64,000 nucleotides of DNA, from assembly GCA_963789865.1 (NCBI GenBank), contig CAWBMD010000002.1:619257-683256 (forward strand). The letters are read 5' to 3'. The notes beneath the pieces were generated by a model. It saw nothing but the letters and a program-made list of their open reading frames with translations, was not told the origin of the DNA and made no database searches. A program made the position numbers and the translations under genes. Positions 10,290 to 10,552 of this stretch are shown one piece after another; positions within the stretch are counted from its first letter, which is position 1, and every line of letters begins with the position of its first letter. Source of the DNA: an uncultured Chloroflexia bacterium (GTDB taxonomy: Bacteria > Chloroflexota > Limnocylindria > Limnocylindrales > CSP1-4).

Positions 10290-10552
10290 CCACCTCCGTG
10301 CATCACGAGCGGCACGGGGCAGGAGGCGCACGCACGCGCACCCAGGCGGGTCGCGTCGGCCCTGGCCTTCTCTCATCCGGACTGTACCGTCGGCTCCGGC
10401 AGGCGAGGCGTACCCCGTCTTCGGATCTGCTGCACGCCGCGGGCTCTGTTGCCGCCGCGCCGCTCGTGGGCTCGTCCCGCGTATCGGGACCCTACCACCG
10501 GTCGGGAATCGCACCCTGCCCCGAAGGCTCTGCCACGGAATCTACCACCACG
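10290..10552 (-). promoter_or_regulatory. Long structured 5' leader of the ABC operon; riboswitch candidate with cobalamin-like core motifs
   Basis: The minus-strand RNA contains GGTGCGATTCCC (10515-10504) and a B12-box-like AGATCCGAAGAC (10428-10417). A CCTCC segment (10326-10322) could pair with the SD GGAGG (10297-10293). This is a by-eye match only. Confidence 0.4.

Follow-up and report, generated by a model that had tools for sequence, protein, structure and literature searches.

An FMN riboswitch very likely controls a predicted riboflavin importer operon in an uncultured Limnocylindrales bacterium

A three-gene ABC transporter operon lies behind a long noncoding leader

The 64,000-nt stretch of a Chloroflexota genome that we analyzed (hereafter the window) contains, on its minus strand, an operon encoding an ATPase, a permease, and a binding lipoprotein in this order. 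The first gene, ribZ (9327-10286), encodes a NitT/TauT-type ABC ATPase (Pfam ABC_tran, E 4.9e-32), for which the closest NCBIfam models, those of taurine and nitrate ATPases, all score under cut-off. It is followed by ribX (8574-9330), encoding the ABC permease (Pfam BPD_transp_1, E 3.3e-30), and by ribY (7416-8577), encoding an NMT1/THI5-type substrate-binding lipoprotein (Pfam NMT1, E 3.3e-35) with the lipobox LAAC-GGG. Both gene junctions are ATGA stop/start overlaps. The closest solved structure to RibY is that of ThiY (PDB 3IX1, E 4.5e-14), which, together with the Pfam match, confirms the ThiY/NMT1 class proposed for this protein in the initial annotation. The same annotation had described an ATPase-permease-binding protein operon behind a long leader, and this arrangement is borne out by the domains and coordinates given above: a noncoding leader of ~250 nt lies on the minus strand, 5' of the ribZ start codon at 10286.

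The leader contains an FMN aptamer conserved throughout the genus

A scan of the whole 64,000-nt window at Rfam gathering thresholds returned three matches, two of them tRNAs and the third the FMN riboswitch RF00050. This places an FMN aptamer (RFN element) at 10361-10532 on the minus strand, with a cmscan score of 72.3 bits (gathering score 66.2, E 1.6e-16) and an alignment that spans model positions 1-138, that is, the full length of the model without truncation. The initial annotation was thus right in reading the leader as a riboswitch. When 10150-10700 was scanned permissively (both strands, E<=10), the FMN model matched again with an E of 1.6e-16, accompanied only by two CRISPR-repeat matches. 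The P1 helix of the aptamer is formed by 10528-10523 paired with 10370-10365, and the aptamer ends 75 nt upstream of the ribZ ATG. The margin over the gathering threshold is only 6 bits, and the score is modest because of long insertions, of 25 and 23 nt, in two peripheral arms (P3 and P4/P5). Other FMN riboswitches of Chloroflexota, in contrast to the 72 bits of the window leader, reach 100-120 bits. It is the one FMN riboswitch of the window assembly (2.48 Mb, 51% complete). Minimum free energy folding of the full leader, which has 72% G+C, is no better than that of shuffled sequences (z 0.79).

The element is widespread among close relatives. Of 24 genomes of the same genus (MAGs of Ca. Limnocylindrales, Chloroflexota), 22 contain an FMN riboswitch, and at 22 of the 23 loci of relatives an orthologous ATPase gene (70-86% identity) follows it directly, the remaining locus ending at a contig edge. 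Five of these 23 loci score just under the gathering threshold (62-66 bits). In an alignment of 22 leaders, the junction nucleotides are invariant while the arms vary, and RNAalifold recovers the six-helix junction P1-P6 of the aptamer, with its conserved junction nucleotides, plus one further helix downstream (the sequestor). On the consensus structure 97.6% of cells are paired, versus 30-47% after a shift of the 3' partners by one to three columns, and none of 500 shuffles reached any of five pairing measures. Compensatory changes on both sides are seen in 12 pairs, most of them belonging to the P3 and P5 arms; the core helices are invariant and hence uninformative. As the 22 leaders are closely related and a single alignment served both to predict the structure and to count the pairs, it is the compensatory changes of the P3 arm, the P5 arm, and the downstream helix that carry the evidential weight, not the shuffle counts. 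This comparison of orthologous leaders, proposed in the initial annotation as a check, shows a conserved structure, and the fold is that of an FMN aptamer.

A conserved helix is predicted to mask the ribosome-binding site of ribZ

The 22-leader consensus and a constrained fold define an expression platform hairpin at 10281-10328 (minus strand) that would sequester both the Shine-Dalgarno (SD) sequence and the start codon of ribZ. Its 5' arm (10328-10311) holds CCUCC and CUGCCCCGU, and its 3' arm (10302-10281) holds the SD sequence GGAGG (10297-10293) and the ATG (10286-10284). Across the 22 leaders, the helix has the consensus UGCCCCGUnnn/nnnACGG(A)GGU and 95% pairing; in three of its distal pairs, both bases have changed. 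When the window sequence is folded with the aptamer constrained to be closed, 10328-10311 pairs with 10302-10281: the SD sequence (10297-10293) pairs with CCCC at 10319-10316, with A10295 bulged, and CCUCC (10326-10322) is paired beside the AUG, not with the SD. The initial annotation had proposed that CCUCC masks the SD sequence. While masking of the ribosome-binding site stands, the element that it assigned to this role does not, the SD being masked by the adjacent conserved GCCCCGU. CCUCC occurs in only ~10 of the 22 leaders, GCCCCG in all 22 without change, and leaders from more distant members of the class retain the GCCCCG box before the SD as well.

The aptamer itself offers a candidate competitor for this box. 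The segment CGGGGCAG (10516-10523, minus strand), which comprises the last base of P1, J1/2, and the 5' strand of P2, is perfectly complementary to CUGCCCCG in the platform (10322-10315), and the two could form an anti-sequestor. Both partners are invariant, so this putative pairing, read from complementarity, lies beyond the reach of covariation. Folds in which the ON and OFF states were enforced have equal energies (-139.0 and -139.3 kcal/mol, respectively), and the SD sequence is partly paired in both. Since energetics thus neither backs nor refutes a switch model, we turned to conservation instead. Further upstream, the leader alignment reveals a candidate extended -10 promoter element, GGTGGTAGATT (10539-10549, minus strand), of the pattern TGnTAnnnT, in which the columns G10 T11 G12. 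T14 A15 ... T19 are invariant in the 22 same-genus leaders. A generic sigma-70 scan called no promoter, the TGnTAnnnT box scoring 8/12. It is a plausible extended -10, and transcription would then start a few nucleotides before the aptamer.

These elements suggest how the leader might work. With plentiful FMN, the aptamer would close and free the GCCCCGU box to sequester the ribosome-binding site of ribZ; the masked SD would turn off ribZ translation and, through the ATGA overlaps at ribZ/ribX and ribX/ribY, lower the translation of the entire operon. With scarce FMN, CGGGGCAG would pair with CUGCCCCG, the SD would be released, and the importer would be made. FMN is thus predicted to shut off translation of the operon. 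We consider the leader to be a genuine FMN-class riboswitch and most likely a translational off-switch. It shares with SD-sequestering FMN riboswitches (RF00050) a match to the full model, a six-helix junction, a position 5' of a flavin supply operon, and a platform that pairs with the ribosome-binding site without a terminator. It differs in its anti-SD, which is not a plain CCUCC but GCCCCGU, paired with ACGG(A)GG around a bulged A. This anti-SD may reflect the need to pair also with CGGGGC in the aptamer.

Should the riboswitch instead act mainly on transcription, by Rho-dependent or intrinsic termination, it would not lack precedents. In Firmicutes, FMN riboswitches rely on terminators, in E. 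coli the ribB element works by translational control together with Rho-dependent termination, and the long, untranslated, G+C-rich leader found here could permit Rho entry after a translation block. However, the minus-strand stretch from the aptamer to the ATG contains no hairpin followed by a U tract, and a conserved, covarying helix covers the SD sequence. A mainly transcriptional mode of action is therefore unlikely.

The operon belongs to the RibXY(Z) importers of Chloroflexota

Operons of this kind are known. RibXY was predicted as a homologue of ThiXYZ from the FMN riboswitches that precede it in every one of the Chloroflexi analyzed (PMC3766115), and RibXY from C. aurantiacus (the prototype, Caur_0816-0817) rescues an E. 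coli riboflavin auxotroph (PMC4418817). The latter paper also relays, from Rodionova et al. 2015, that RibY binds flavins and that a ribZ ATPase gene is found beside ribXY in "a few" Chloroflexi. RibXY orthologues are called in PMC4418817 by an FMN riboswitch ahead of the operon, as is found in the window, and the threshold set there for RibY is an identity of 38% or more to the C. aurantiacus prototype, covering 80% or more of its length. The window operon shares with RibXY an FMN riboswitch followed by genes for a COG0600-type permease and an NMT1/COG0715 binding protein. We judged the likeness via riboswitch-linked RibX/RibY pairs across the phylum (33-60% identity).

We found FMN riboswitches in 89 of 151 sampled Chloroflexota genomes, a tally that takes in one unpublished genome (G084), on which no other result depends. 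Among the best 30 FMN loci in other families of the phylum, 24 have RibX and RibY homologues directly downstream and no ATPase gene; these share 34-52% (RibX) and 33-60% (RibY) identity with the window proteins. By contrast, the order riboswitch-ribZ-ribX-ribY is seen at all five loci fetched from the other family of the class and also in one further same-genus genome, with RibY at 40-46% and RibX at ~61% identity in the class relatives. A dedicated ribZ thus comes first here (order Z-X-Y), and throughout the class Limnocylindria as sampled, whereas most other Chloroflexota have X-Y only. The operon is therefore a representative of the published RibXY(Z) riboflavin importer system of Chloroflexi, an already known kind, and homology and the literature point to riboflavin as the substrate of RibZ-RibX-RibY. 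Taken as a whole, the leader (10281-10549, minus strand) is very likely an FMN riboswitch controlling the three-gene riboflavin ABC importer ribZ-ribX-ribY in a Limnocylindrales host.

Almost no riboflavin synthesis genes and no recognizable riboflavin kinase were found in the genus

We surveyed 31 genus genomes for riboflavin genes; 11 of these genomes are at least 90% complete. The survey found no ribE in any of the 31 and no ribD match reaching the model cut-off, while ribH and ribB turned up in one genome only, a MAG in which they share a 2.9-kb contig (G003:C19; L117 and L121) that may be a binning contaminant. Controls for these searches were positive in all or most reference genomes. 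Such (near-)absence of synthesis genes makes physiological sense of riboflavin uptake. The importer is the only recognizable flavin supply in the genus genomes searched, a situation known from some Chloroflexi, and a host lineage without riboflavin synthesis has likewise been reported for Roseiflexus castenholzii (PMC3766115, PMC4418817). Through the riboswitch, the operon can be recognized as the route by which an abundant soil lineage, as yet uncultured, obtains flavin, and the lack of riboflavin synthesis genes in the genomes searched is useful for media design and for models of vitamin cross-feeding.

Imported riboflavin has to be phosphorylated to yield FMN, and here the genomes are unusual. 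Searches of the 31 genus genomes revealed no flavokinase domain (PF01687) and no archaeal CTP-dependent kinase (PF01982), whereas PF01687 is present in all nine other Chloroflexota tested, four of them from the same class. RibF homologues of four genera in the family match only the FMN-adenylyltransferase half (FAD_syn), and in an alignment their tail of ~70 aa is without the kinase motifs PTAN, GxxPTF, and E.HLLD, which are present in the RibF of a neighboring family. That family, of the same class, has a normal bifunctional RibF. The RibF-like genes concerned (for example, at G000:C5:81319-81879, L118:1450-2211, and L120:1450-2214) still follow truB.

One explanation for these genomes would keep the FMN riboswitch as described and have the importer take up FMN or another flavin, the lineage having no riboflavin kinase. 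The missing kinase domains and the truncated RibF are what would be expected of it. Against it stands a sister-genus genome (G129), which likewise lacks PF01687 and the kinase part of RibF but has an FMN riboswitch followed by ribD-ribE-ribBA-ribH; moreover, the characterized homologue of the importer transports riboflavin (PMC4418817). Import of FMN in place of riboflavin is accordingly quite unlikely. Because G129 makes riboflavin and must phosphorylate it, without a known kinase, the family probably has an unrecognized riboflavin kinase rather than imported FMN. The fuller proposal, namely that the canonical riboflavin kinase was lost in this Limnocylindrales family and that FMN comes from an unrecognized kinase family or, less likely, from direct uptake via RibZXY, is one that we advance tentatively and at somewhat below an even chance. 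The importer system itself being published, the missing riboflavin kinase is the sole thread that might lead toward something new.

Besides the element of the synthesis operon, G129 contains another FMN-like element of lower score (58 bits), immediately followed by a solitary gene for a RibY-like binding protein (62% identity), beside which there is no permease or ATPase gene. The two FMN-element loci of this genome are L161 (G129:C98:10100-15300) and L162 (G129:C120:41800-46800).

Frame breaks in ribX and ribY match the background of the assembly

In the window, each of the genes ribX and ribY contains a single extra base and so is read in two frames. For ribX this base is near 9239, in a run of C (three-frame translation): tblastn with intact orthologues switches frame at 9233-9238, and there is a 1-nt gap at 9239 relative to locus L025. 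For ribY it is near 7723, with the frame switch at ~7720-7770 when compared with intact orthologues. Both genes are intact in the congener loci fetched. As a probe of assembly quality, intact open frames of two congeners were aligned to the syntenic part of the window. This revealed about 20 frame switches in 27.5 kb (~0.8 per kb), with up to six per gene, some of them falling where identity is 96-100%. Frame breaks occur across 1600-44500 of the window (for example, at 31469-34109, 39392-40313, 22275-24118, and 21749). They look like indel errors of long-read assembly and may add to the low completeness estimate (51%); gene-level readings of the window should allow for them. The gene rpoB was not found in this half-complete window assembly.

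The frameshifts would also suit a decaying pseudogene cluster in the window strain, with the riboswitch as a relic, a reading that draws on the presence of a +1 frameshift in each of ribX (~9239) and ribY (~7723). However, two breaks in 3.1 kb match the background rate of the window, the frames are otherwise open and align at 70-86% identity to intact orthologues, and both aptamer and platform are intact. Decay of the operon is thus very unlikely and, since the breaks are as frequent as elsewhere in the window, the ribX and ribY frameshifts are probably assembly errors.

The leader matches neither cobalamin nor TPP riboswitches

The initial annotation had linked the leader to B12 biology on the strength of two 12-mers, GGTGCGATTCCC and AGATCCGAAGAC, which resemble parts of the cobalamin riboswitch consensus. 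Both are present where that annotation placed them, and each occurs once in the window (chance expectations 0.014 and 0.002, respectively). The model alignment assigns them to conserved positions of the FMN aptamer. The first (10515-10504) is the P2 hairpin, with the consensus AGGGUGaAAUUCCC, and the second (10428-10417) starts with GCAGAUCCG, a conserved junction/helix segment. The cobalamin, AdoCbl-variant, and TPP models gave no match on 10150-10700 on either strand, even at E<=10 with permissive filters, and no cobalamin model reached its gathering score anywhere in the window. For a B12-sensing leader, the initial annotation had named the lack of a significant cobalamin match among its grounds for rejection, and that is the outcome of these scans. 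Weak cobalamin-model matches do occur in four genus genomes; they sit at other loci. With no cobalamin match and a full-length match to RF00050, the idea that this transporter takes up a corrinoid-related precursor falls as well, the operon being an FMN-riboswitch-controlled RibXY(Z) (PMC3766115, PMC4418817). A cobalamin riboswitch controlling import of a corrinoid-related compound is thus hardly credible.

Equally remote is the notion of a divergent TPP riboswitch in front of a ThiXYZ-type HMP/FAMP importer: ThiY (3IX1) is the closest solved relative of the binding protein and RibY homologues in other phyla sit behind TPP riboswitches (PMC4418817), but the TPP hallmarks CUGAGA and ACCUGAUC are absent from the leader, as the initial annotation had noted and as motif and model searches confirm, and the TPP riboswitches of the genus lie at another locus. 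Four congeners have one such riboswitch each (L167-L170; for example, G006:C1:2588904-2589014), preceding a paralogous NMT1 binding protein, permease, and ATPase in the order Y-X-Z, and the TPP-linked binding protein is only ~25% identical to RibY. The window assembly, which is half-complete, yielded no TPP riboswitch. Since the genus has a separate, TPP-linked ThiY-type paralogue, there is no real conflict in a ThiY-like protein without a TPP switch. The operon and ThiXYZ, with its FAMP/HMP-binding ThiY (PDB 3IX1), belong to the same transporter family and share the NMT1/THI5 fold family of binding proteins, while the riboswitch class differs (FMN here, TPP there).

The main value of these results lies in the correct annotation of the operon. 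Protein similarity alone would have led to a transporter for taurine, sulfonate, nitrate, or a thiamine pyrimidine, and the first reading of the leader would have pointed to B12 biology.

Neighboring features

Downstream of ribY, on the opposite strand, the region 5975-7725 (plus strand) encodes tandem lipoprotein modules in several frames, with Pro/Thr/Ala-rich linkers; by eye, these modules resemble META/HslJ-like domains (KxWxLTAI...FNTDxTF...ADCN). A tRNA gene is found at 5976-6047 on the minus strand.

On the other side of the operon, just upstream of its candidate promoter, is a 37-bp tandem repeat (10639-10903) with 7.3 copies and 94% matches, which falls outside the stretch aligned between the genus leaders. 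Each 37-bp unit holds a GC palindrome that gives rise to weak CRISPR-DR28 and terminator-like pattern matches on the plus strand. The two CRISPR-DR28 matches of the permissive scan, at 10650-10696 (E 0.38 and 8), stem from this palindrome and were set aside as chance matches.
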